IMG/VR virus record: IMGVR_UViG_2684623189_000004
Source of the DNA: a virus
Taxonomy: Duplodnaviria; Heunggongvirae; Uroviricota; Caudoviricetes
DNA length: 47,382 nt
Direction: 5' to 3' (one strand)
The notes beneath the pieces are model-generated. The model saw nothing but the letters and a program-made list of their open reading frames with translations. It ran no database searches and was not told where the DNA came from. The translations under genes and the position numbers were made by a program. Positions 172 through 47,382 of this stretch are shown in pieces (position 1 is the first letter of the stretch; each line of letters starts with the position of its first letter).

Positions 172-235
172 TGAACCATGGCCTCCGGAACAAATAAGGG
201 CAAAAATAACAACCACTATCGAAAGCTCACAAACT

Positions 236-485
236 AACCGCAGCACGTTCCTGCATACGACGTGTCTGCGGCATAATCCCAATGATTACTCCCTGACAGG
301 ATTTGCAGGCCACTCAATATCAGGTGCAGTTGATGTATCAACACGATTCAACAATACCCGATATTTATTCCATGCCTCCAGCAACGATCTTTCTTCCTCC
401 GTTGCGATTTCCAGATCTACAGCATCCTGCAGTGGCGCAATATACTCACTGAATTCCTGGATGTAGAACTGTGTGGTGACGGTCT
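236..485. repeat. direct repeat copy 1 of tfa 3' end and downstream hairpin (pairs with 1286..1535)
   Basis: about 250 bp roughly 90% identical to 1286..1535, including hairpin CCGCAGCACG...CGTGCTGCGG-like element. Confidence 0.7.
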
Positions 486-555
486 TCCAGCCATTCGGCT
501 CCTGCTGTATCGAAGCATACCAGGCTATTTCAATATCGCTATGCTGCGGCAGCAT
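286..555 (-). pseudogene. tfa: tail fiber assembly protein C-terminal remnant
   Basis: 89-aa ORF nearly identical to the C-terminal half of the full Tfa at 1335..1919; lacks the N-terminal half. Confidence 0.6.
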
Positions 556-611
556 TTAACCCCTTGTAATTCATCGCCATAATTGATTTAATTCACAAAT
601 AAAACTATAAC

Positions 612-1280
612 ATGGTGAAATCAATGAAAAAAAACACAGATGATGGGGCTAAAATTTACACACCACTTACCCTAAAGCTTTATGACTGGTGGGTTTTGGG
701 AGTATCAAATCGGCTTGCATGGGGATGTCCTACAAAGGAACACCTTCTTCCACACTTTCTGGAACATGTAGGTAACAACCATCTGGATATTGGTGTTGGA
801 ACTGGGTTTTACCTTACTCACGTACCTGAGAGTAGTCTGATATCTTTAATGGATTTGAACGAAGCTAGCCTGAACGCGGCATCTACAAGGGCTGGGGAAT
901 CAAAAATTAAACATAAAATTAGCCATGATGTTTTTGAACCTTATCCCGCGGCGTTACATGGTCAATTTGATTCCATTTCCATGTTTTACCTTCTTCACTG
1001 CCTGCCTGGAAATATATCTACAAAAAGCTGTGTAATACGCAATGCGGCGCAGGCCTTAACTGACGATGGAACTCTATACGGAGCCACAATTCTTGGCGAT
1101 GGAGTTGTGCACAATAGCTTCGGTCAAAAACTGATGCGCATTTACAATCAGAAAGGCATCTTTTCAAACACAAAAGATTCCGAAGAAGGCTTAACACATA
1201 TACTCTCAGAGCATTTCGAGAATGTTAAAACCAAGGTTCAAGGTACTGTAGTAATGTTTTCCGCTTCAGGGAAAAAATAG
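612..1280 (+). CDS. class I SAM-dependent methyltransferase-like protein (moron between tfa duplicates)
   Basis: 222 aa; Rossmann motif-I-like LDIGVGTGFY; opposite strand to phage late genes; lower GC; flanked by direct repeats. Confidence 0.55.
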   Translation: MVKSMKKNTDDGAKIYTPLTLKLYDWWVLGVSNRLAWGCPTKEHLLPHFLEHVGNNHLDIGVGTGFYLTHVPESSLISLMDLNEASLNAASTRAGESKIKHKISHDVFEPYPAALHGQFDSISMFYLLHCLPGNISTKSCVIRNAAQALTDDGTLYGATILGDGVVHNSFGQKLMRIYNQKGIFSNTKDSEEGLTHILSEHFENVKTKVQGTVVMFSASGKK

Positions 1281-1285
1281 CATCC

Positions 1286-1535
1286 AACCGCAGCACGTTC
1301 TTGCTTAAGACGTGCTGCGGCATAATCCCAATGATTACTCCCTGACAGGGTTCGTAGGCCACTCAATATCAGGTGCAGTTGATGTATCAACACGGTTCAG
1401 CAACACCCGATACTTTTTCCAGGCTTCCAGCAATGAGGTTTCTTCCTCCGTTGCAATTTCCAGATCTGCAGCATCCTGAAGCGGCGCAATATGCTCACTG
1501 GCTACCTGCATCAGGTTGTTTTTTGTTTCTTCCGC
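1286..1535. repeat. direct repeat copy 2 (3' end of intact tfa plus downstream hairpin)
   Basis: matches 236..485; perfect 10-bp stem CCGCAGCACG/CGTGCTGCGG at about 1287..1319. Confidence 0.7.
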
Positions 1536-1919
1536 CTCCCGGATCCGGAACATTTTTTCTGCTTCCGTATCCTTCACCCAGGCTGTGCCGTTCCACTTCT
1601 GAAACTCCCCTTCCGGCGATAACCAGGTAACATTTTCCGGTAACGGACCGAGTTCAGAAATAAATAACTCGTCCCCTGACGCTACGTCATAAACCGTTTT
1701 ACCCCGATGGTCTTCAACGAGATGCCACGATGCCTCATCACTGTTGAAAACAGCCACAAAGCCAGCAGGAATATCTGGTGGTGCAATATCGGTACTGTTT
1801 GCTGGCAGACCTGTATGAGGCGGAATATATGCGTCACCTTCACCAATAAATTCATTAGTTCCGGCCAGCAGATTATAAATTTTTATGGTCCGTGCTTGTT
1901 CACTCATTCTGAATGCCAT
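1335..1919 (-). CDS. tfa: tail fiber assembly protein Tfa
   Basis: 194 aa; immediately downstream of stf; resembles lambda Tfa as recalled. Confidence 0.85.
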
Positions 1920-4900
1920 TATGCAAGCCTCACAATATAGTTAAATGCGATGTTTTTGACGGTGTTTTCCGCGTTACCAGCAGCGTTAACGGTGATGGTG
2001 TGTCCATGTGAACCAATCGCAACGGAGTGCGTATGCGCACCAATACCTACAGTATGTGCATGTGCGCCAGAACTTGCTGCAGTACCAGACAGCGAGTGGG
2101 TATGAGCACCTGCTGACTGTGTCTGAATACGTTGATAATACGATCTACGGGAAGAAGTCCCCGGGCTTACTTGATACTGTGAATCCTGGACATAAGTGAA
2201 CCCACCGCCATCATAAAATGCTAACGCAGAACCGCCGCCTCCTGGCCAACGAATACCATTACCATGAGTATGATCACCGGCAGACCCCGTAGAGCCACTC
2301 AGACTGTGCGTATGCGCCCCGGTGTTATTCGTGGATTTGGTTCCGTAATCAAACGACGATGTGTTTTTCGTCCCCAAATCCGTACTGGATGCGCTGGCGC
2401 TGTGGGTGTGCGATTTAATGCCGTCCTGTTCCTGAGACAATACGGCACGACCACTGGCGGGTTTGCCCTTAATCGTCCAGCCACGCATATCAGGGATCAC
2501 GCCTGACGGATAAGCGGCTGCAAGTTTCGGGTATGCAGATTTGTCAAAAGTCTGCCCCTGCATCAGGGCATAGCCAGACGGAACGGTATCTGATGGCCAC
2601 GGGATTGGTGCGCCAGGCGGATAAAACTGCTCTGATGGCGTATAGAGTGAATAAACTGTACCGTCCGTTAACCCTTCCGGCTTATTAGCAGAATATGCTG
2701 GTGACGTATGAATCGTCACGCTGGCATTACTGGTATAATCCCATTGAATATTTACACCAGTCGCATAATTTCCGATTGCAACGTAAATATCGTAAGTATC
2801 ACCAGATGTATTGACCCAGGCAAAATTTGTAAACCCTGTCGATGTGCGCTGCCATAAAGCACCAGTAATCCCCTTCGGATTACCATTACCTGCACGCAAA
2901 ACAAGTTCAGATATACCTGCCTGTTGAGGTGACCCCACGTTAAATCCCGCACCACCAATCAACGTAATTGAAACAACAGAACTCGCCTGTGGCATGGTTA
3001 CCGTTGCTAATTTGAACCAACCAGCACCACCGCTGAATGACATTGTTGTTGAGTTAAGCGTACCAATATCTTTCGGCGTCAGTGTTATATCCGCTGAAAG
3101 CGCCTTACCATTCACCTTACGGGCAGAAGGTACCCGACCATTCGCATTATTATTAGCTGCTTTCACTGCTTTCGGTGTCGCGGCAAGCGTTTCAGATGCG
3201 CTGTTGGTTGCACTACTGAGCTGGACAATTCCTTTTTGTGCTGTCGTAGCGTCCTGAGCAGTATATTTCCCGTTAGCAAGGTCATAGGCTGCCTTTACCG
3301 ACTTTGGCGTTGCCGCCAGCATTTCAGATGTGCTGTTGGTTGCACTACTGAGCTGGACAATTCCTTTTTGTGCTGTCGTAGCGTCCTGAGCAGTATATTT
3401 CCCGTTAGCAAGGTCATAGGCTGCCTTTACCGACTTTGGCGTTGCCGCCAGCATTTCAGATGTGCTGTTGGTCGCGTTGCTAAGCTGAACTATCCCTTTC
3501 TGTGCTGTCGTTGCATCCTGTGCGGTGTATTTCCCGTTAGCCAGCTCATACGCGGCCTTAACGGCTTTTGGCGTTGCCGCCAGTGACTCGGAAGTGCTGT
3601 TAGTCGCACTGCTGAGCTGTACTATCCCCTTTTTCGTCGTGCTCGCATCCTCAAGCGCCACGGCGGATGCAATATCCTCTGCCCGTTTTGCCGCTGTCTC
3701 AGCGCGCGTTGCCGCGGATTCCGCCGTACTTTTGCTCTGAGCTGCCGCCGTCGCACTGCCAGCTGCCTCTGTCGCCTTCGTGGATGCCGTCGTGGCGCTG
3801 CCCTTTGCTGCTGACGCCTGTCTGGTCGCCTCATCTTTTGAAGCAGACGCAGATGATGCCGATGACGCCGCCGAACTGGCGGACGATGCGGCAGCCGTTT
3901 TTGAGGATTCTGCGCTGGTTTCCGACGCTTTCGCGTTCGTCTTGGATGTCTTCGCTGCGGAAGCAGACCTCGCTGCTGCGCTGGCCTGTACAGCGGCTTC
4001 GCCAGCCTTCGTTGTGGCTGTTGAAGCAGACGATGCAGCACTTTCTGCCGATTTTCCGGCGGCGGTGGCACTGGCTGAGGCCTGCCCGGCACTTGTTGAC
4101 GCGGCACTGGCAGATAATGCAGCCGCTGTTTTTGAGTCTGCCGCAGCTGAGGCGCTCTGTCCCGCTGCCGTTTCAGAAGACCTGGCGTTCGTCTCGGACG
4201 TTTTTGCCGCCTTCGCAGAATTTGCTGCCGCCGTTGCCGAGGAAGCTGCGCTGCTGGCGCTCGAGGCTGCGTTCGTTTCTGATGATTTTGCCGCCTCTTT
4301 TGAAGCCGACGCATCCCGTGCTGAAGTGGCTGCTTCTGACGCTTTCGTGGTCGCGGTGGATGCAGAAGTGGCTGCTGATTGTTGTGACGCTGCGGCATTC
4401 GTTTCTGACGTTTTCGCGGCACTGGCGCTGGTAGCTGCCGCGCTTTTTGATGACTCTGCAGCAGCAGCACTTTTTGCTGCTTCACGGGCCTTTGTCGATG
4501 CCGTTCCTGCGCTGGAAGACGCTGACTGAGCCGACGACGCGGCCTGTCCGGCTGACGTGCTGGCGGCACGTGCTGAGGCTGCAGCATCGGTTGCATGAGT
4601 TGCCGCCTCGCTGGCTGATGCACTGGCATCGCTGGCTGATTTTTTCGCGGCTGCCGTATTCTGTGCAACCGCGGAGGCGTTACGTGACACCTCTTCCACC
4701 ATCTGCTCAAAGCGGCGCAGTGCCTCCGGTCGGACATCATCCTCCGTCATGGCACCGAGAAAATCATTCAGCGTACCTGGTCTGGAACCTTCATAGACGG
4801 TAATGGTCCCGGCATGTGAAGGCGGAAAACCTTCAACCAGCAGGGTGACGCTGTACTGACCATGCTCAACATCCATGCTGTAACGTCCGGCTTCATCCGG

Positions 4901-5026
4901 ATTTTCAGAGGCCACCGTGTTCACCACCACCGTGCTGCTGGTTCGTCTGGCCTTCAGCACAATGGTGCAGTTCTGTACTGGTTTTCCTGTGCCATCTTTA
5001 AGCACGCCAGAAATTTTTACTGTCAT
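1919..5026 (-). CDS. stf: side tail fiber protein Stf
   Basis: 1035 aa; Ala/Ser-rich shaft, 44-aa tandem repeats, His-rich C-terminal region (GAHTHSLSG motifs); position J-lom-stf-tfa as in lambda. Confidence 0.85.
3090..3620 (-). repeat. about four in-frame tandem 132-bp repeats inside stf
   Basis: DNA period 132 bp (for example 3231 vs 3363) encoding repeated 44-aa unit [44 protein letters not shown]. Confidence 0.7.
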
Positions 5027-5177: not shown

Positions 5178-5777
5178 TCAGAAACGGTATCCGATACCAA
5201 CAATAAATGCATCCGTTCGCCAGTCGCCACTACCGGAACCTTCATAAGCAAGGTCAATGGTCACGGATTCGGTCGGGTTAAACTGCACGCCAGCCCCCCA
5301 CGCCAGAGACGTGTTGCTGTGGCGACCGTCATCACTTCCGGTCAGCACATCGTGCGTTTTCCCCTTGTTGTCAGTTACGCGGAGATAATCCCCGGAGAAA
5401 GTCGACACACGGCTGTAAGCCACACCCGCCATCGAATACGCGCTGAACCATTCATTCACGCGTACAGACGGCCCCGCCATCACGCTGAACCAGCGGTTAC
5501 GCACGGAATCTTCATGCCAGCGGGTATCGCTGTAGTGCGTTTTTTGCTCATCCTCAGCATTGGCATAACTGAAGGACGTAATCAGCCCCAGCGCGTCCGT
5601 AAACTCATAACGGTATTTCACGTTAATCCCGTTCAGATTATCGCTGCCGGGAGCGTTCGTACGGGCATGAAGATACCCCGCGCTCAGTGTGGACTGATGT
5701 TCAGACGCCCATGCAGGCGCACCGGATACGGACAGACAGATGGCTGCGGACAAAATGACTGCACAAACTTTACGCAT
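5178..5777 (-). CDS. lom: outer membrane protein Lom (Ail/Lom family)
   Basis: 199 aa with signal peptide and C-terminal aromatic residue; position between J and stf as in lambda. Confidence 0.85.
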   Translation of the reverse strand: MRKVCAVILSAAICLSVSGAPAWASEHQSTLSAGYLHARTNAPGSDNLNGINVKYRYEFTDALGLITSFSYANAEDEQKTHYSDTRWHEDSVRNRWFSVMAGPSVRVNEWFSAYSMAGVAYSRVSTFSGDYLRVTDNKGKTHDVLTGSDDGRHSNTSLAWGAGVQFNPTESVTIDLAYEGSGSGDWRTDAFIVGIGYRF

Positions 5778-5844: not shown

Positions 5845-8800
5845 TCAGCTGATACTGATGCCTGCGGTGGCTTTCTTCATCACCACAACCAGCAAATCGC
5901 TGATACTTGCTGTGGGATACCAGTTATTCACCAGCCATGCTGACACCGAAAACTCCAGCGTCATGTGGCCGCGACCAGCTGGCATATCAATAACACCACT
6001 GTAAATCAGCGTATTATCCAGCGCGGTACGGTTATAAATTTCAGCACCGTTTTTCCGTACTATCAGGCGGCATGACGAATAAATATCGTTATTCTCCCGC
6101 TCATGTTTAGCGCCGCTGAATGCCACCGCCGGAATAACAATCTGCCGGTCAAACGGCTGATCGTCATAAACCCTGACGGTGATGGTCCCTGATGGCCACC
6201 GTTCCGGTGCACGGGAGTCCCGGGGGAAAGCTTTGCCCACTGTTTTAACGAGATCGCCTTCAATCTGGTTGGCGGACAATTTTCCCAGAACCCGACAGTT
6301 CTCGTTAATCGTGACGTTGTTGAGCGTCCCGGAGTTCGCATTCACGTTACCGCTGATATCGGCATTTTTCGCCGTCAGCCGCCCGTCCGGTGTCAGGGAA
6401 AATGCCGGAGGATTACCGCCGCTGGTAATGGTCGGAGCCGTCAGGCGTTTCAGGAACACGTCGTTCATGAATATCTGATCGCCCTGACCAACAAACATCG
6501 GCTTTGTGTTGCCATTCGCAGGATTAATCATCGCAATCCGGTCAGCAGCCAGAAGCACCTGACTCTGCATACCTGCTGGCGTATTCTCAATACCGGCTCC
6601 GATACCCGCAATATAAAGGCGTCCGTCCTTCATCTGCTGCAGTTTCACGGCCCACATGCTGTTCAGGTTATTATTTGTATCAACCTGAACTTTCTGTATC
6701 TGCTGGATTGCCGCACTCTGGTCTTCCAGTTTTTTATTGACGGTCTGCGTGATTTCATTGCTGACATTCGTAATGGACGTCCTGATTTCAGCCAGGTCCG
6801 GCGCAAGCTGACCGTTATCAATCTGCGTCCACAACTCCTGGGCCAGATGTGTTTTCCCGATTTCTCCTTTGAAAAAATCCAGGTAACCTTCCGCATCATC
6901 GCTCGCCCGACCGACAGCCTCCACGAATGCCGATTTGCCAACGGTGTTCACACTGCGAACGTAAAAATAATAATCATGGCCCGGTTTGATATTGATACTG
7001 GCGGCTATCCAGTACAGCGCCGTACCAAGATAGCGGGCTGTGGTTTCAACCTGCCTGATATCGGTAATCCGCTTTTCCGAGAACCAGAACTCAAACTGTA
7101 CCGTCGGGTCATAAACAGCAAGATGCGGCGTGGCGGTTATCTGAAAATAGCCCGGCGTCAGCTCAATCCTCGACGGTGCTGCCGGTGCGGCAATCCGGAA
7201 CGATACCGACGCCGGATCGCCCTGCTGCCCCCGGGCATTTACCGCCCGGACTGTCAGCCTGTAGTTCCCCAGCGCCAGTTGCGTGAAGCGGTATGTGGTT
7301 TCCGTCGTCCGGGCCGTGCTGACCAGTCGCTCACTGCCGTCGTCCGCTGTTACGGTCAGACGGAGCAGGAAGCTCACGCCCTTCACCACCTTCGGTGTGT
7401 CCCATCGCGCCAGCACCTGATATTCCCCGCTGTCTGCAGTGACTTCGGCGGTCAGGTGCTGCACTGCTGGCGGCGTGACACCATTCACCGTGCCGCTCTG
7501 GTCACCGTCAAAGTGCGCCCCGTTATCCACGATGGCTTCTTTCTCCGGTACATGCTGCACGGCGGTGATGGCATACGTGCCGTCATCGTTCTCACGGATA
7601 CTCACGCAGCGGAACAGGCGCTGGCGCAGCGTCGGCAGCTTCAGCCCCCACACGCTGTATTCTGCAACGCCGTCAGGAACACGGCTCACTTTCACCTTCA
7701 CGCCGTCGGTGACGGACTGGACCTCCACGCTGACCGGATTACCCTGACCGTCAACCAGGCTTATCAGCGTGGTACCGGAGGATGGCAGCGTGATTTCACG
7801 GTCGAGCGTCAGCGTCCGGGTCTGGCTGTTCACCGCCAGCACGCGACCACCGGTGCTGATACCGGCATAGTCATCATCGCAGATTTCAATGACATCGCCC
7901 GGTACATGGCGAAGCCCTTCAGCACCCACGCTGAAATCCACGGTCTGCGTCTCCAGCAGTTCCGTTTTAATCAGCCACAGCCCGGCGCGGTGTGCCTGCC
8001 CCCGGCTGGTACAGCCAAAGGCATCCATCTTCGTGACGTTACGACCGTAACGGGCAATGGCCTGCGTGTCCTCCACAAGCTCTGTCGCCGTCTCCCAGCC
8101 GTTATCCGGGTCAATCCAGTTCACCTCAACAGCATTATGGCGGTCTTTCAGGGCGCTGAAGCTGTAGCGGAACGGCGCACCATCATCCGGCATCACCACA
8201 TTACTGCGGTTATAGGTCCACACCTTATCCGACGGTCGGTCCTGCACGAACGTCAGCGTCTGCCCGTTCCATACCGGCATACAGCGCATCGCCGAGCAGA
8301 AATCACTGAGAACATCCCACGCCTTGCGCTGTGTGGTCAGGTAGGCATTACAGGTGATGCGCGGCTCCGTGCCACCAAAGCCATCCGGCACCGACTGGTC
8401 GCAATTCTGGCCGATGACATACAGCGCCCATTTGTCCACATCCGCCGCACCGAGACGCTTCCCCATGCCGTAGCGCGGATGGGTCAGCATATCCCACAGA
8501 CACCAGGCCATGTTGTTGCTGTATGCTGGCTTAAACGTTCCGTCCCAGATACCGCTGTATTGCCGCGTCTGCGGGTTATAGTTCGACGGCACCTGCAGAA
8601 TGCGCCCGCGAAGATGATAATTACGGCTCACCTGCTGGCTGCCGAACTGTTCCGAGTCCACCTGCACGCCGACCAGTGCCGTGTTCGGGTAGCACTGTTT
8701 CACATCGATGATTTCGGTGTATGACGACCAGAGCGTTTTGTTCTGCAGCTGGTCTGTGGTGCTGTCCGGCGTCATTCTGCGCATCCGGATATTAAACGGG

Positions 8801-9324
8801 CGCGGCGGCAGGTTATCCACCACCACCGAGGCCAGATACTGCGAGGTGGTTTTGCCCTTAATGGTGATGTCTTTTTCCGTCACCCAGCCACCGTTACGCT
8901 GGATCTGAACCAGCAGGCGGACTTCCGACGGATTCCTGTCCCCCTTTGAGGTGGTTTCCACCAGTGCCTGCACACCGAAGGTAAAGCGCAGACGGTCGAT
9001 GTTTGCCGACGTGATGGTCCGGGTGATCGGCGTGTCATATTTCACTTCCGTACCCAGCACCGTCTCGGAGCCGGAGGATTCAAATCCCTCCGGCGGTGTC
9101 TGCTCCTGCTCACCTGCCCGGAACACCACCGTGACACCGGATATATTGGTATTCCCCTCACTGTCCAGCACCGGCGTACTGTTCAGCAGCACGCTTTTTA
9201 ATCCGTCCACCGGACCTTCAACCGGCCCTTCGCTGATGGCATCGATCACACTCAGCAGCTGCGTGGACTTCAGGTTGTCCCTCGCTTCGCGCGGGGTATG
9301 CCCCTTACTGCTTCCTTTACCCAT
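5845..9324 (-). CDS. J: tail tip host specificity protein J
   Basis: 1159 aa; follows I; size and position as lambda J. Confidence 0.9.
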
Positions 9325-29544: not shown

Positions 29545-29790
29545 TGCCCACAAGAAAACCCCTCCGGAGAGGGGCTAAAGCCGCGTATCTGTATCATCAT
29601 GCACATGGTGCCGGGTGCCTCCCGGTGAGTTCAGCCCGGTGCCACTAAACCCGCGTCATTCTCGTTTTGATAATCAGAGATTATACCGTCACCAGTCGCC
29701 CCTCCGCTCAGGGGGATTCACCATGCGAAATTTTTTTAACAAATGCCCAGTCTGACAGGCAACTGTCAACTTACTGAATTGTGAGCAACA
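29545..29790. repeat. diverged tandem repeat unit A (ends in GC hairpin plus T-tract on minus strand)
   Basis: shares CCCCTCCGGAGAGGGG, CATGGTGCCGGGTGCCTCCCGGTGA, GCCCCTCCGC.CAGGGGGATTCACCATG, CTGAATTGTGAG blocks with unit B. Confidence 0.6.
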
Positions 29791-30035
29791 TAGCATTTAA
29801 CGGGGAACCTGTTTTCTGCAGTAAAAAGGCCCACCGGAGCGGATGGGCCTGGAAGGATAGCGGTCATGTGATGCCGGTTTCCCGGTAACTCAGCACCGGT
29901 ATCTGAGTCAACGTTTTCTCTACTGGGTCATTTCCGATACGCCCTGCCTGCTGACAGGCTTTCATCACATCTGAAAATATAGCACCCTGACTGATACTGT
30001 AGTACCTAAGGTTCCAGAAACTGTGATGTATCCGG

Positions 30036-30265
30036 CACAGAAAAGCCCCTCCGGAGAGGGGCTGGAGAGTGGCGCTATGTGCCATTGCATGGTGCCGGGT
30101 GCCTCCCGGTGAATTCAGTACCAGCACCTGAATCCGCGATTATCCCATATACCTACTCGCTGATTGCCCCTCCGCACAGGGGGATTCACCATGCCAGTTT
30201 CTTTTAACAAACTCCCCGCAAACCAGACAACAGTCAACCGCCTGAATTGTGAGACATTTAAAAAA
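30036..30265. repeat. diverged tandem repeat unit B
   Basis: same blocks as unit A; immediately downstream (minus strand) of tRNA-Arg(UCU). Confidence 0.6.
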
Positions 30266-30298
30266 AAGCCCGCAAAAGCGAGCCAGGGAAAATAAGTG

Positions 30299-30375
30299 TG
30301 GCGCGTTGTACTGGATTCGAACCAGTGACCGATTGCTTAGAAGGCAATTGCTCTGTCCGGCTGAGCTAACAACGC
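30299..30375 (-). tRNA. argO: tRNA-Arg (anticodon UCU)
   Basis: 77 nt; 7-bp acceptor GCGTTGT/ACAACGC, anticodon loop CCTTCTAAG, T-loop GGTTCGAATCC, 3' CCA. Confidence 0.85.
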
Positions 30376-30388
30376 AGGATACAGATAA

Positions 30389-30466
30389 TGGACCGCCTTC
30401 GGGGACCCGAACTCCGCGCAACCAGCTTCGAAGGCTGGCGCTCTTTCCTGATGAGCTAATGGCGGT
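30389..30466 (-). tRNA. argN: tRNA-Arg (anticodon UCG), atypical stems
   Basis: anticodon arm CCAGC-CTTCGAA-GCTGG, D-arm GCTC...GAGC, encoded CCA; mismatches in acceptor and T stems; exact ends uncertain. Confidence 0.55.
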
Positions 30467-30472
30467 ATGTGA

Positions 30473-30548
30473 TGGTGGCCCTTGCTGGATTTGAACCAGC
30501 GACCTGGCGATTATGAGTCGCTCGCTCTCACCACTGAGCTAAAGGGCC
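30473..30548 (-). tRNA. ileZ: tRNA-Ile2 (anticodon CAU, lysidine type)
   Basis: 76 nt GGCCCTTTAGCTCAGTGG...CTCATAATCG...GGTTCAAATCC...GGGCCACCA; close to E. coli ileX as recalled. Confidence 0.85.
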
Positions 30549-30597
30549 GGGAGCAGAATAATAATGGTGCGTAATTAATTCTGCAATCTCATCCGTT

Positions 30598-42455: not shown

Positions 42456-43020
42456 CTAACCAACGAAGCTAAGGTTGGTAATTAAGGAGTTCTCCACGGG
42501 TGAGGTGGAGTGCGTGCGCCGGACACGGGTGAGCATCCGGCACTGACAGTTTACTGAAAGGATATTTCCCTGAAAAGTCAGACCATAACGCGAAAGCGCA
42601 CGGCGAGGTAGCTGGTTCATAGATAGCCTGTCGTTAAATTTTCGTCGACCGTGCGCTTCCGGTTGTGGCAATCCGCGAAATGGCGCGGCGGTAAGTATGG
42701 CGGGGTTATTCCTTCCACCGTTGAGGACACCGGGTTGTCAGGTTGACCATACGCTTAAGTGACAACCCCGCTGCAACGCCCTCTGTTATCAATTTTCTGG
42801 TGACGTTTGGCGGTATCAGTTTTACTCCGTGACTGCTCTGCCGCCCTTTTTAAAGTGAATTTTGTGATGCGGTGAATGCGGCTAAGCGCACGCGGAACAG
42901 TTAAAACCAAAAACAGTGTTATGGGTGGATTCTCTGTATCCGGCGTTAATTGTTAACTGGTTAACGTCACCTGGAAGCACCAGGCACCGCATCACAAAAT
43001 TCATTGTTGAGGACGCGATA
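42456..43020 (+). other. 565-bp non-coding, GC-rich, hairpin-dense region in the early-left operon (candidate structured RNA or regulatory element)
   Basis: no credible ORF on either strand; 10-bp stem AAGCGCACGG/CCGTGCGCTT, 9-bp stem GGGTTGTCA/TGACAACCC, 18-bp perfect inverted repeat at 42857..42874 and 42984..43001. Confidence 0.4.
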
Positions 43021-46025: not shown

Positions 46026-46274
46026 ATGGCAAGACTTATTCTGCTCACTGAGTGGGCAAAGGAGGAATTCAGTGAACCGGTCCCTACTCCGAGTACGTTA
46101 AGTAAATACGCTAAAGCCGGAATGATATTTCCTCTCCCCAAAAAAGTTGGAAGACGCTGGCGAGTGGATCCGCAAGCTCGCTTTGTCGGAATGGTAAACA
46201 AGCCGGAGGTGATCGCCACAGATCACCCTGCTTTGAAGAGGATACTGGAAGATGGCGCGCCCGCGAAAATATAA
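46026..46274 (+). CDS. xis: excisionase-like protein
   Basis: 82 aa; overlaps int start by 23 nt. Confidence 0.65.
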   Translation: MARLILLTEWAKEEFSEPVPTPSTLSKYAKAGMIFPLPKKVGRRWRVDPQARFVGMVNKPEVIATDHPALKRILEDGAPAKI

Positions 46275-47382
46275 AACCGATGTTCCGGGATTATCTCCGT
46301 ATTTTGACAAAAGAAATAACAAAGTTTACTGGCGTTACAGGCATCCCATAACAGGCAAAAATCACGGTCTCGGCAGTATTGACCAGAAACTGGCAGAAAC
46401 TATTGCAGCAGAAGCGAACAGCCGTCTTGCCCGGCAGCAAATGGAACAAATGCTCAGTCTGCAGGAGAAAATTATTAGTGACACCGGCGGTTCATCAACC
46501 GTTACCATTTTTCTGAATAATTACAGAAAAATTCAACAGGAAAGATATGAAAACGGCGAGATCAAACTCAACACGCTGAAACAGAAAGCGGCCCCTCTCA
46601 GGGTATTTGATGAACGTTTTGGCACCAGACCGTTAGATGCCATAACCGTAAAAGATGTGGTATCAGTACTGGAAGAGTACAAGGCCAGAGGACATAACAG
46701 AATGGGACAAATTTTCAGGAAAGTACTGATCGATGTTTTCCGGGAAGCTCAGCAAACGGGCGATGTCCCGCCAGGCTTTAACCCTGCAGAATCGGCAAAA
46801 AAACCGCAGGTGCGGATATCAAGACAGCGACTGACTTTTGATGAGTGGATGATGATTTATAACGCAGCGGAAAAGGATGGTTACTTTTTACAGCGCGGTA
46901 TGCTGCTGGCACTGATGACAGGCCAGCGCCTTTCAGATATTTGCAAAATGCAATTTTCGGATATCCGGGATGGTTATCTTCATGTCGAACAGCAAAAAAC
47001 AGGAACCCGGATTGCCATCCCTCTGGCTCTGCGTTGCGATAAATTAAATCTCACCCTAGATGATGTGGTGTCATCCTGCCGCGATTGCGTTCTTAGTCCG
47101 TGGCTATTGCACCACCATCACGCGAAAGGGACAGCTAAGCGCGGCGGGATGGTTAAGCCAGCAACATTAACCGTTGCATTTAAAAAAGCCCGGGATTCTG
47201 TGGATTACAACTGGCGTGCTAATGGCACCCCACCCTCTTTCCATGAGCAGAGATCTTTATCAGAGCGATTGTTCAGAGAGCAGGGGGTTGATACCAAAAT
47301 TTTGCTGGGCCATTCGAATCAAAAAATGACCGATATTTACAACGACGCACGCGGTAAGGAATGGAAAAAACTGGTCATTTGA
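46252..47382 (+). CDS. int: tyrosine integrase
   Basis: 376 aa; C-terminal LLGHSNQKMTDIY catalytic region; stop codon is the last 3 nt of the window. Confidence 0.85.
   Translation: MARPRKYKTDVPGLSPYFDKRNNKVYWRYRHPITGKNHGLGSIDQKLAETIAAEANSRLARQQMEQMLSLQEKIISDTGGSSTVTIFLNNYRKIQQERYENGEIKLNTLKQKAAPLRVFDERFGTRPLDAITVKDVVSVLEEYKARGHNRMGQIFRKVLIDVFREAQQTGDVPPGFNPAESAKKPQVRISRQRLTFDEWMMIYNAAEKDGYFLQRGMLLALMTGQRLSDICKMQFSDIRDGYLHVEQQKTGTRIAIPLALRCDKLNLTLDDVVSSCRDCVLSPWLLHHHHAKGTAKRGGMVKPATLTVAFKKARDSVDYNWRANGTPPSFHEQRSLSERLFREQGVDTKILLGHSNQKMTDIYNDARGKEWKKLVI

Follow-up and report, generated by a model that had tools for sequence, protein, structure and literature searches.

An intact counterpart of ybcY, a probable moron-type methyltransferase gene, at the tail fibre end of a lambdoid prophage of Escherichia coli

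The DLP12 prophage of Escherichia coli K-12 carries, in this order, tfaD, ybcY (b0562, a pseudogene) and tfaX (b0563), followed by appY and ompT. The literature on ybcY consists of gene lists, one promoter table obtained by SELEX (systematic evolution of ligands by exponential enrichment) and one description of the ompT context, and holds nothing on function. In phage lambda the gene ea47 lies convergent to tfa across a hairpin and is co-oriented with int. The moron concept is said to go back to Juhala and colleagues in 2000, and lom and bor are reportedly morons of the lambdoid phages. We analysed a caudovirus genome of 47,382 nucleotides (IMG/VR record IMGVR_UViG_2684623189_000004, the whole of which is referred to here as the window) in which a gene on the + strand, open reading frame (ORF) 612-1280, is flanked by two copies of the 3′ end of tfa. 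This gene is the intact counterpart of ybcY, and we consider it probable that it represents moron-type cargo, a small-molecule methyltransferase gene carried in the b region of a lambdoid prophage and flanked by a recombination scar. The gene, its family and its layout were already known (as ybcY/tfaX, PHROG 2132 and a RefSeq class I methyltransferase). What is new is minor and comprises a corrected start codon, a native promoter that appears to have moved with the gene, the chimeric make-up of the tfaX-type ORF and a reading of Rfam IS009 as a tfa coding segment. As a discovery the locus is a modest one, the gene and layout being already annotated and the gene ordinary in E. coli prophages.

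K-12 DLP12 and the window have the same gene, layout, spacer, tfaX-like ORF, hairpin and tfa flanks, and a three-way alignment of K-12 and phage 2G7b with the window matched through the tfaX-like ORF, spacer, methyltransferase gene, hairpin and tfa 3′ end, with a nucleotide identity of 99.4-99.7 % for the methyltransferase gene itself (99.4 % for K-12 ybcY). They differ in two respects. The gene is intact in the window whereas K-12 ybcY is a pseudogene, because a 2-bp deletion removes the equivalent of ATG 624, and beyond tfaX K-12 continues with appY-ompT while the window prophage ends, after a relic of a DUF4376-domain gene, at ompW. ORF 612-1280 encodes 222 amino acids (aa) and contains LDIGVGTGFY, taken for a Rossmann motif for S-adenosylmethionine (SAM) binding in an earlier interpretation made from the letters of the window alone (the sequence-only reading), and Pfam matches to Methyltransf_12 (4e-9), Methyltransf_23, Methyltransf_25 and Methyltransf_11 agree with that assignment. 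RefSeq places the start at 612 (222 aa, WP_000240999.1) under the name class I SAM-dependent methyltransferase, and the profile of PHROG 2132, listed as of 'unknown function', is matched with an E value of 3.9e-157 over 1-218 of its 218 positions. The length of 222 aa is correct for the ORF but most likely not for its product. All 29 of the 29 aligned homologues start at the position of M5, which corresponds to ATG 624, and ATG 612 arises from an E. coli-specific change within a conserved Shine-Dalgarno sequence (AAGGTGA in other genera, ATGGTGA here) and was rejected as the start codon. Together, the homologue starts and the conserved Shine-Dalgarno sequence make a coding sequence of 624-1280 (+ strand), with a product of 218 aa, the most likely one. 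The gene lies on the strand opposite the head and tail genes, J, lom, stf and tfa, and has a lower GC content (41.2 %, and 35.6 % at third codon positions) than tfa (47.9 %), stf (54.2 %) or the whole window (51.5 %), both as had been noticed from the sequence.

Over bases 1-2200 the window shows 100 % identity to E. coli UTI89 (NC_007946, 1432976-1435175, reverse strand). The same holds for numerous other strains, chiefly extraintestinal pathogenic ones (among them S88, APEC O1 and NU14), as well as ATCC 11775. By the UTI89 annotation the window is a complete lambdoid prophage at ompW, beside the trp-yciGFE region. The integrase gene lies at the opposite end (46252-47382, + strand) and the methyltransferase locus falls in the final ~1 kb before the prophage end, while tfa (1335-1919), stf (1919-5026), lom (5178-5777), J (5845-9324) and the other head and tail genes are annotated on the - strand. 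The tfa gene is intact (194 aa; Caudo_TAP, E 1e-44; PHROG 105) and has 93.6 % nucleotide identity to lambda orf-194. Homology of the window to phages lambda, HK629 and HK630 sets in exactly at position 1286, the base of a hairpin, and extends through tfa at 93.6-93.7 % identity, and all three are without the methyltransferase gene. Lambda possesses just one tfa 3′ end, and this position is taken there, in the same orientation, by ea47, a gene unrelated to the methyltransferase. Because lambda has the same tfa and hairpin but ea47 in this place, we regard the methyltransferase gene as moron-type cargo in the first slot of the b region, and the suggestion that it is non-core cargo at the tail fibre end is upheld by this comparison of the tfa-downstream region. 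Like morons such as lom and bor, it is an extra gene with a putative promoter of its own, a distinct base composition and a presence or absence between homologous neighbours. Unlike lom and bor, its product is a predicted cytoplasmic enzyme and not an envelope protein, and the gene has no apparent terminator of its own. The hairpin on its 3′ side (1288-1320), a terminator-like element of tfa and the late operon that is common to phage lambda, lies between the convergent stop codons of the methyltransferase gene (1278-1280) and tfa (1335-1337).

Motif I (L-D59-I-G-V-G-T-G65) is present in the protein, with D59, G61, G63 and G65 invariant in 30 homologues, as are D81 (in DLN), D106 (in HD) and D120, to which roles in contacting SAM may be given by analogy, and YDWWVL, LLHCLPG and YNxKGIFSN are invariant motifs specific to the family. 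An AlphaFold2 model built from 30 homologues (predicted local distance difference test, pLDDT, 90.5) has a class I methyltransferase topology, with the seven-stranded alpha/beta methyltransferase fold and an N-terminal helical lid. The protein is accordingly placed by profile and model, the route proposed earlier for assigning its family, as a predicted stand-alone, cytoplasmic class I SAM-dependent methyltransferase. A secretion signal, raised at the same time, was not borne out, the 222-aa sequence having no signal-peptide-like N-terminus. The top matches of the structure search include MM_2633, PsmD, DhpI, Coq5, phosphoethanolamine and phosphatidylethanolamine N-methyltransferases and JHAMT. 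JHAMT (7ec0), UbiG (4kdr), Coq5 (4obw), PmtA (8ys9) and Plasmodium PMT (3uj7) share with it the Rossmann-type fold, helical lid, motif I and acidic residues, but only 12-21 % identity. Searches of PDB sequences for a substrate, with the single sequence and with the family profile, gave weak matches to JHAMT and UbiG only (6e-6 and 1e-3 with the profile). NCBIfam scores fall about ten-fold or more below the cut-offs for PmtA (NF045882, Legionella; 15.7 against 390 bits), RquA (NF038261; 16.9 against 175 bits) and CpaM (NF043040; 18 against 180 bits). The weak PDB matches, the low NCBIfam scores and the mixed structural neighbours agree with the earlier statement that the substrate cannot be read from the sequence. 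The nearest characterised relatives (JHAMT, UbiG/Coq5 and the PmtA/PMT-type enzymes) have as substrates small molecules, most of them lipophilic, or the head groups of lipids, and on that ground we offer, as a low-confidence guess by analogy, a small and probably lipophilic molecule as the class of substrate. Distant relatives show domain fusions (P450, RCC1) which are uninformative for this protein.

The flanking direct repeats of the tfa 3′ end with their hairpin, described in the sequence-only reading as about 250 bp long, are real and far beyond chance, although their length is 227 nt. Positions 236-462 and 1286-1511 align at 88.5 % identity with one 1-nt indel (blastn E 4e-80), and the tfa part alone (286-462 and 1335-1511) at 87.6 %. 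Each copy opens with a hairpin, followed by the last 58 codons of tfa. The right hairpin has a folding energy of -23 kcal/mol on the + strand and -28.5 kcal/mol on the - strand (z about -5 against shuffled sequences). The left one (238-271; direct repeat families D4 and D1), 3′ of a tfa stop codon and terminator-like on the - strand by RNA folding, has -17.9 and -24.1 kcal/mol respectively (z about -3; -3.35 on the - strand) and contains a terminator-like site on the - strand at 255-239. The left repeat copy was thought to be a truncated tfa remnant. This is true of 286-462 (- strand), which holds the last 58 codons and stop of tfa, matches Caudo_TAP positions 75-130 (E 6e-25) and is a tail fiber assembly pseudogene in RefSeq, but not of the 89-aa ORF 286-555 as a whole. 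That ORF, the equivalent of K-12 tfaX, matches both PHROG 2341 and PHROG 3893 and is a chimera, in which the first 31 codons of a small phage gene of ~79 aa (463-555, - strand, PHROG 3893-like) are fused in frame to the 58 tfa codons. Intact 79-aa ORFs of this PHROG 3893-like type are found in two contigs (L017 4700-4941 and L019 791-1030), divergent from a Citrobacter methyltransferase gene that is 92 % identical to ours, and window 469-540 matches such an ORF at 93 %. The switch to tfa lies at 452-468, over a short CAGG microhomology. The 79-aa protein has no Pfam family and is present in 45 phage records, from Klebsiella, Erwinia, Cronobacter, Pantoea and E. coli (HK225, mEp390), its gene lying at ~20-26 kb, just beyond the tail genes, in phage genomes deposited in lambda-like orientation. 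The chimeric ORF is decaying in some copies, with a 7-bp deletion in 2G7b and a shortened form in K-12, and we treat it as a scar and not as a gene.

The repeat copies are 11.5 % divergent from each other, against a variation of at most 1.6 % in the cassette across the sampled E. coli copies, so that the joining of two tfa alleles fits better than an in-place duplication. An insertion between duplicated tfa ends, as first proposed, is right in that the gene is flanked by both copies but too simple, given the fusion of the left copy to another gene and the 11.5 % divergence, and the chimera points to illegitimate recombination and not to a simple insertion. Beyond the tfa relic lies the relic of a DUF4376-domain, tail-fibre-associated gene (1-189, - strand), a RefSeq pseudogene in UTI89 and strain 55989 that adjoins an ompW fragment, although a Pfam scan of 4-282 gave no match for this region. 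Its position suggests repeated replacement of tail fibre modules, each leaving 3′ scraps behind. The locus is a clean example of the formation of joints in phage mosaics, in that the chimeric ORF preserves the site at which a small gene of the b region was illegitimately joined to the 3′ end of a tfa gene. Both repeat regions also resemble Rfam RF02111 ('IS009'), the left below threshold at 329-532 (- strand, 112.5 bits against a gathering score of 117) and the right over the full model at 1378-1576 (- strand, 223.8 bits). The right-hand match lies entirely within tfa coding sequence, on the sense strand, and IS009, listed as an RNA gene, may thus be a conserved segment of tfa coding sequence and not a small RNA.

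The region 556-623 (+ strand) would serve as promoter and 5′ leader of the methyltransferase gene, with a Shine-Dalgarno-like GGTGA at 614-618 and two candidate sigma-70 promoters, TTGTAA-17-TTTAAT (564-592) and TTGATT-17-TATAAC (583-611). In the ybcY-tfaX spacer of K-12, which is identical to that of the window, Shimada et al. 2014 reported an RpoD-holoenzyme site by genomic SELEX, with the hexamers TTGATT-17-TATAAC for ybcY (PMC3946193), which correspond to window 583-611. The alignment of upstream regions has a footprint, cTTGtaAT ... TTGATTTAAT ... ACTaTAAC ... AAGGTGAAAT-CAATG, in Citrobacter, the copy on a Salmonella plasmid, Enterobacter and Klebsiella, and more weakly in Yersinia. Identity of the spacer to the window is 83.8-92.6 % in the Salmonella-plasmid and Citrobacter homologues and 75 % in Enterobacter. 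Because chromosomal and plasmid homologues have the same promoter and leader, the gene appears to have arrived with its own regulatory region.

We found the gene region (600-1285) at ≥ 95 % identity to the window in 3,797 of 5,426 complete E. coli genomes (~70 %), with up to four copies per genome, and the methyltransferase gene in 14 full-length phage records, inducible sequenced phages among them. Carriers span uropathogenic, avian pathogenic and enterohaemorrhagic E. coli as well as inducible phages. The junction of the methyltransferase 3′ end, hairpin and tfa 3′ end is present in 3,065 of the 3,797 carriers and that of the 5′ end with segment 463-555 in 3,435, so the tfa-bracketed layout is the norm among them, and the acquisition is neither recent nor private to this prophage. 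The wider family comprises 1,326 clusters at 50 % identity (E ≤ 1e-3), with 527 related loci in species-representative genomes, the best 80 of which are mainly from Enterobacterales, Pseudomonas, Pasteurellaceae, Xanthomonadales and Oxalobacteraceae. The Salmonella, Enterobacter and Erwinia homologues examined are monocistronic and chromosomal, in unrelated neighbourhoods, and clustering of the neighbours of 73 loci from species-representative genomes revealed no conserved neighbour beyond synteny at genus level (in Pseudomonas, a crotonase-like protein, CorA and a GATase). The copies closest to that of E. coli come from a plasmid-like Salmonella contig that also carries ccdAB and kfrA, from contigs rich in insertion sequences and from a Citrobacter locus beside dinI. 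From these sequence comparisons the gene would derive from a gammaproteobacterial chromosomal family that is also found on plasmids and islands.

In the account we favour, the methyltransferase gene would originally have formed a divergent pair with the 79-aa gene and would have moved together with its promoter and leader. Illegitimate recombination would have linked the truncated 79-aa gene to a second tfa 3′ end and hairpin, derived from a different allele of tfa. Transcription in the lysogen would most likely start from the gene's own sigma-70 promoter, probably damped by H-NS. A second route could open after excision, when transcription running leftward from int might cross attP and enter the gene, which points in the same direction as int. 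The product would methylate a small molecule of the host or the environment to the benefit of the lysogen, and would have no part in virion assembly and not be needed for phage growth. The identity with ybcY, the fold, the purifying selection described below, the conserved promoter region, the presence or absence at the lambda junction and the chimeric ORF were seen directly, and the expression pattern, substrate class and host benefit are what we infer from them. A more specific form of the host benefit is lysogenic conversion, in which the enzyme, borne on phages, plasmids and islands, would modify a lipophilic metabolite of the host or the head group of a membrane lipid, or would detoxify an environmental compound, and so alter the fitness of a large fraction of E. 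coli strains or their susceptibility to phages. We put this forward as a tentative possibility, on balance doubtful; if true, a role would be assigned to a gene that ranks among the commonest uncharacterised ones in E. coli prophages. The gene is intact, subject to purifying selection and present in ~70 % of complete E. coli genomes, and knowing its substrate would help to explain what lambdoid prophages bring to the bacteria they inhabit.

Several observations weigh against the cargo account. The prevalence of the gene must in part stem from an ompT-linked DLP12 remnant, and may owe much to vertical inheritance of that remnant and not to selection on the methyltransferase: K-12 and strain E06 both hold this old remnant, it has also been described in CFT073, UTI89, 536 and others (PMC6854850), and many E. 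coli copies are probably in old DLP12-type remnants beside ompT. The pseudogene in K-12 and the existence of truncated variants (for example a 161-aa cluster of 445 members) indicate that the gene is dispensable in some lineages. H-NS was flagged at the ybcY-tfaX spacer in the same SELEX study (PMC3946193), which suggests that the gene may be largely silent. The promoter assignment is ambiguous because the hexamers of that study put the transcription start inside the conserved Shine-Dalgarno sequence, and TTGTAA-17-TTTAAT (564-592) appears more compatible with its use. The right hairpin, which starts 8 nt past the methyltransferase stop, belongs to tfa and lambda, and its + strand is not followed by a U tract, leaving it a putative terminator at most for the methyltransferase gene. 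The structural neighbours, lastly, favour no single substrate class.

These points bear most on the main rival, that the gene is a decaying passenger without current function, kept by linkage to ompT or to a tail fibre recombination hotspot together with vertical inheritance. Besides the K-12 pseudogene, the truncated clusters and the H-NS flag, this rival draws on the persistence of the gene in heavily degraded DLP12 remnants beside ompT and on a K-12 ybcY deletion that was without effect in the single reported phenotype, though that allele was already a pseudogene. Selection on the protein sequence speaks against it. The ratio of nonsynonymous to synonymous substitution rates (dN/dS) relative to the window copy is 0.17 for the Salmonella plasmid, 0.21 for Citrobacter and 0.12 for Enterobacter, and it is 0.21-0.29 among E. 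coli alleles differing at synonymous sites, values that indicate purifying selection. Outside K-12, all copies examined have an intact full-length ORF, the main 222-aa protein cluster has 6,589 members, and across Gammaproteobacteria the family retains invariant catalytic-site motifs at 50-68 % identity. Its presence in inducible, sequenced phages is a further argument against mere decay, and we judge the passenger explanation unlikely.

Moron-type cargo of metabolic character also has to be set against superinfection exclusion or another anti-phage role, in which methylation of an envelope lipid or receptor-related molecule would hinder adsorption or injection, as with cor and the lom region. 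Exclusion genes occupy the position after the tail fibre genes in other lambdoid phages, and the methyltransferase gene lies directly downstream of such genes; the match to Legionella PmtA points the same way but is as weak as given above. A search of the PADLOC defence profiles returned mad2 as its sole match (E 0.0096, 12.8 bits), which is not meaningful, the family consists for the most part of ordinary chromosomal genes not located in mobile elements, and the structural scores show no preference for lipid methyltransferases over other small-molecule enzymes. An exclusion function is, in our assessment, improbable.

A nucleic acid methyltransferase with an anti-restriction or epigenetic role is less probable still. 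Orphan DNA methyltransferases are frequent in phages and a few tRNA-modifying enzymes (CmoA, Trm9, METTL6) are among the structural neighbours, but the best relatives by sequence are JHAMT and UbiG, and at 218 aa the protein is without a target-recognition domain. The 222-aa sequence has neither a (D/N/S)PP(Y/F/W) nor a PCQ motif and matches no Pfam DNA-methyltransferase family at E ≤ 0.01, on which grounds the DNA methyltransferase reading was rejected. The prophage already has an annotated DNA methyltransferase gene (30598-31647), and the chromosomal homologues examined have no restriction partner. Least credible of all is that the repeats delimit an autonomous mobile cassette or an invertible, shufflon-type tail fibre switch, even though duplicated tfa ends typify invertible tail fibre segments and the same bracketed unit recurs in many genomes: the Mu G, P1 C and e14 P segments have inverted repeats and a Din-family invertase, whereas here the repeats are direct (the only inverted pair found being a 15-nt match at chance level) and share just 88.5 % identity, the left copy forms a single reading frame with part of another gene, no invertase is among the ORFs and annotations of the region and no invertase, transposase or integrase gene adjoins it in the window, and the Salmonella and Citrobacter copies are without tfa flanks, so that both the invertible segment and the transposon-like cassette were rejected and the repeats are not a transposition footprint.

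Some homologues were found in settings of their own. A paralogue in E. coli with 61 % identity (L020-L022) is located near perC, and in two of the three contigs is accompanied by an IbrA-like gene (PAPS-reductase/DUF3440) and a gene for a 212-aa partner. At a Proteus locus (L076) the homologue adjoins a pair assigned by eye as IbrA-like and ParB/IbrB-like, and both of these neighbour clusters recur in six loci. We take this loose co-occurrence with IbrA/IbrB-like genes to reflect a mobile-element context. Two contigs labelled as metagenome-assembled genomes of Bacillus sp. (L026) and Planococcaceae (L034) carry the E. coli gene at 99 % identity, most likely through contamination or mis-binning. 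In a prophage of the O157:H7 strain 86-24 (L011 6179-8392) a yciG/yciF/yciE-like cluster and a manganese catalase gene lie between the methyltransferase gene and tfa. This cluster may be host DNA taken up by the phage from the ompW/yciGFE attachment site, where the window prophage adjoins the chromosomal yciGFE genes.

A number of further features were observed within the window prophage itself. RefSeq annotates a 45-aa 'hypothetical protein' (WP_001309429.1) at 1225-1362 on the - strand, overlapping the methyltransferase 3′ end, the hairpin and the tfa stop, a call that is probably spurious. In stf (- strand, window 3100-3600) a ~44-aa unit that includes ATNSTSE·LAATPK·VKAAY·LANGKY occurs three to four times in tandem, and these copies come after a long Ala/Ser-rich and GC-rich (~61 %) stretch. 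Elsewhere in the prophage (29546-31647, 35069-35243 and 42795-42846) we identified two STnc100 copies, a sok/hokD locus and DicF, and three tRNA genes lie just downstream of the separate DNA methyltransferase gene.

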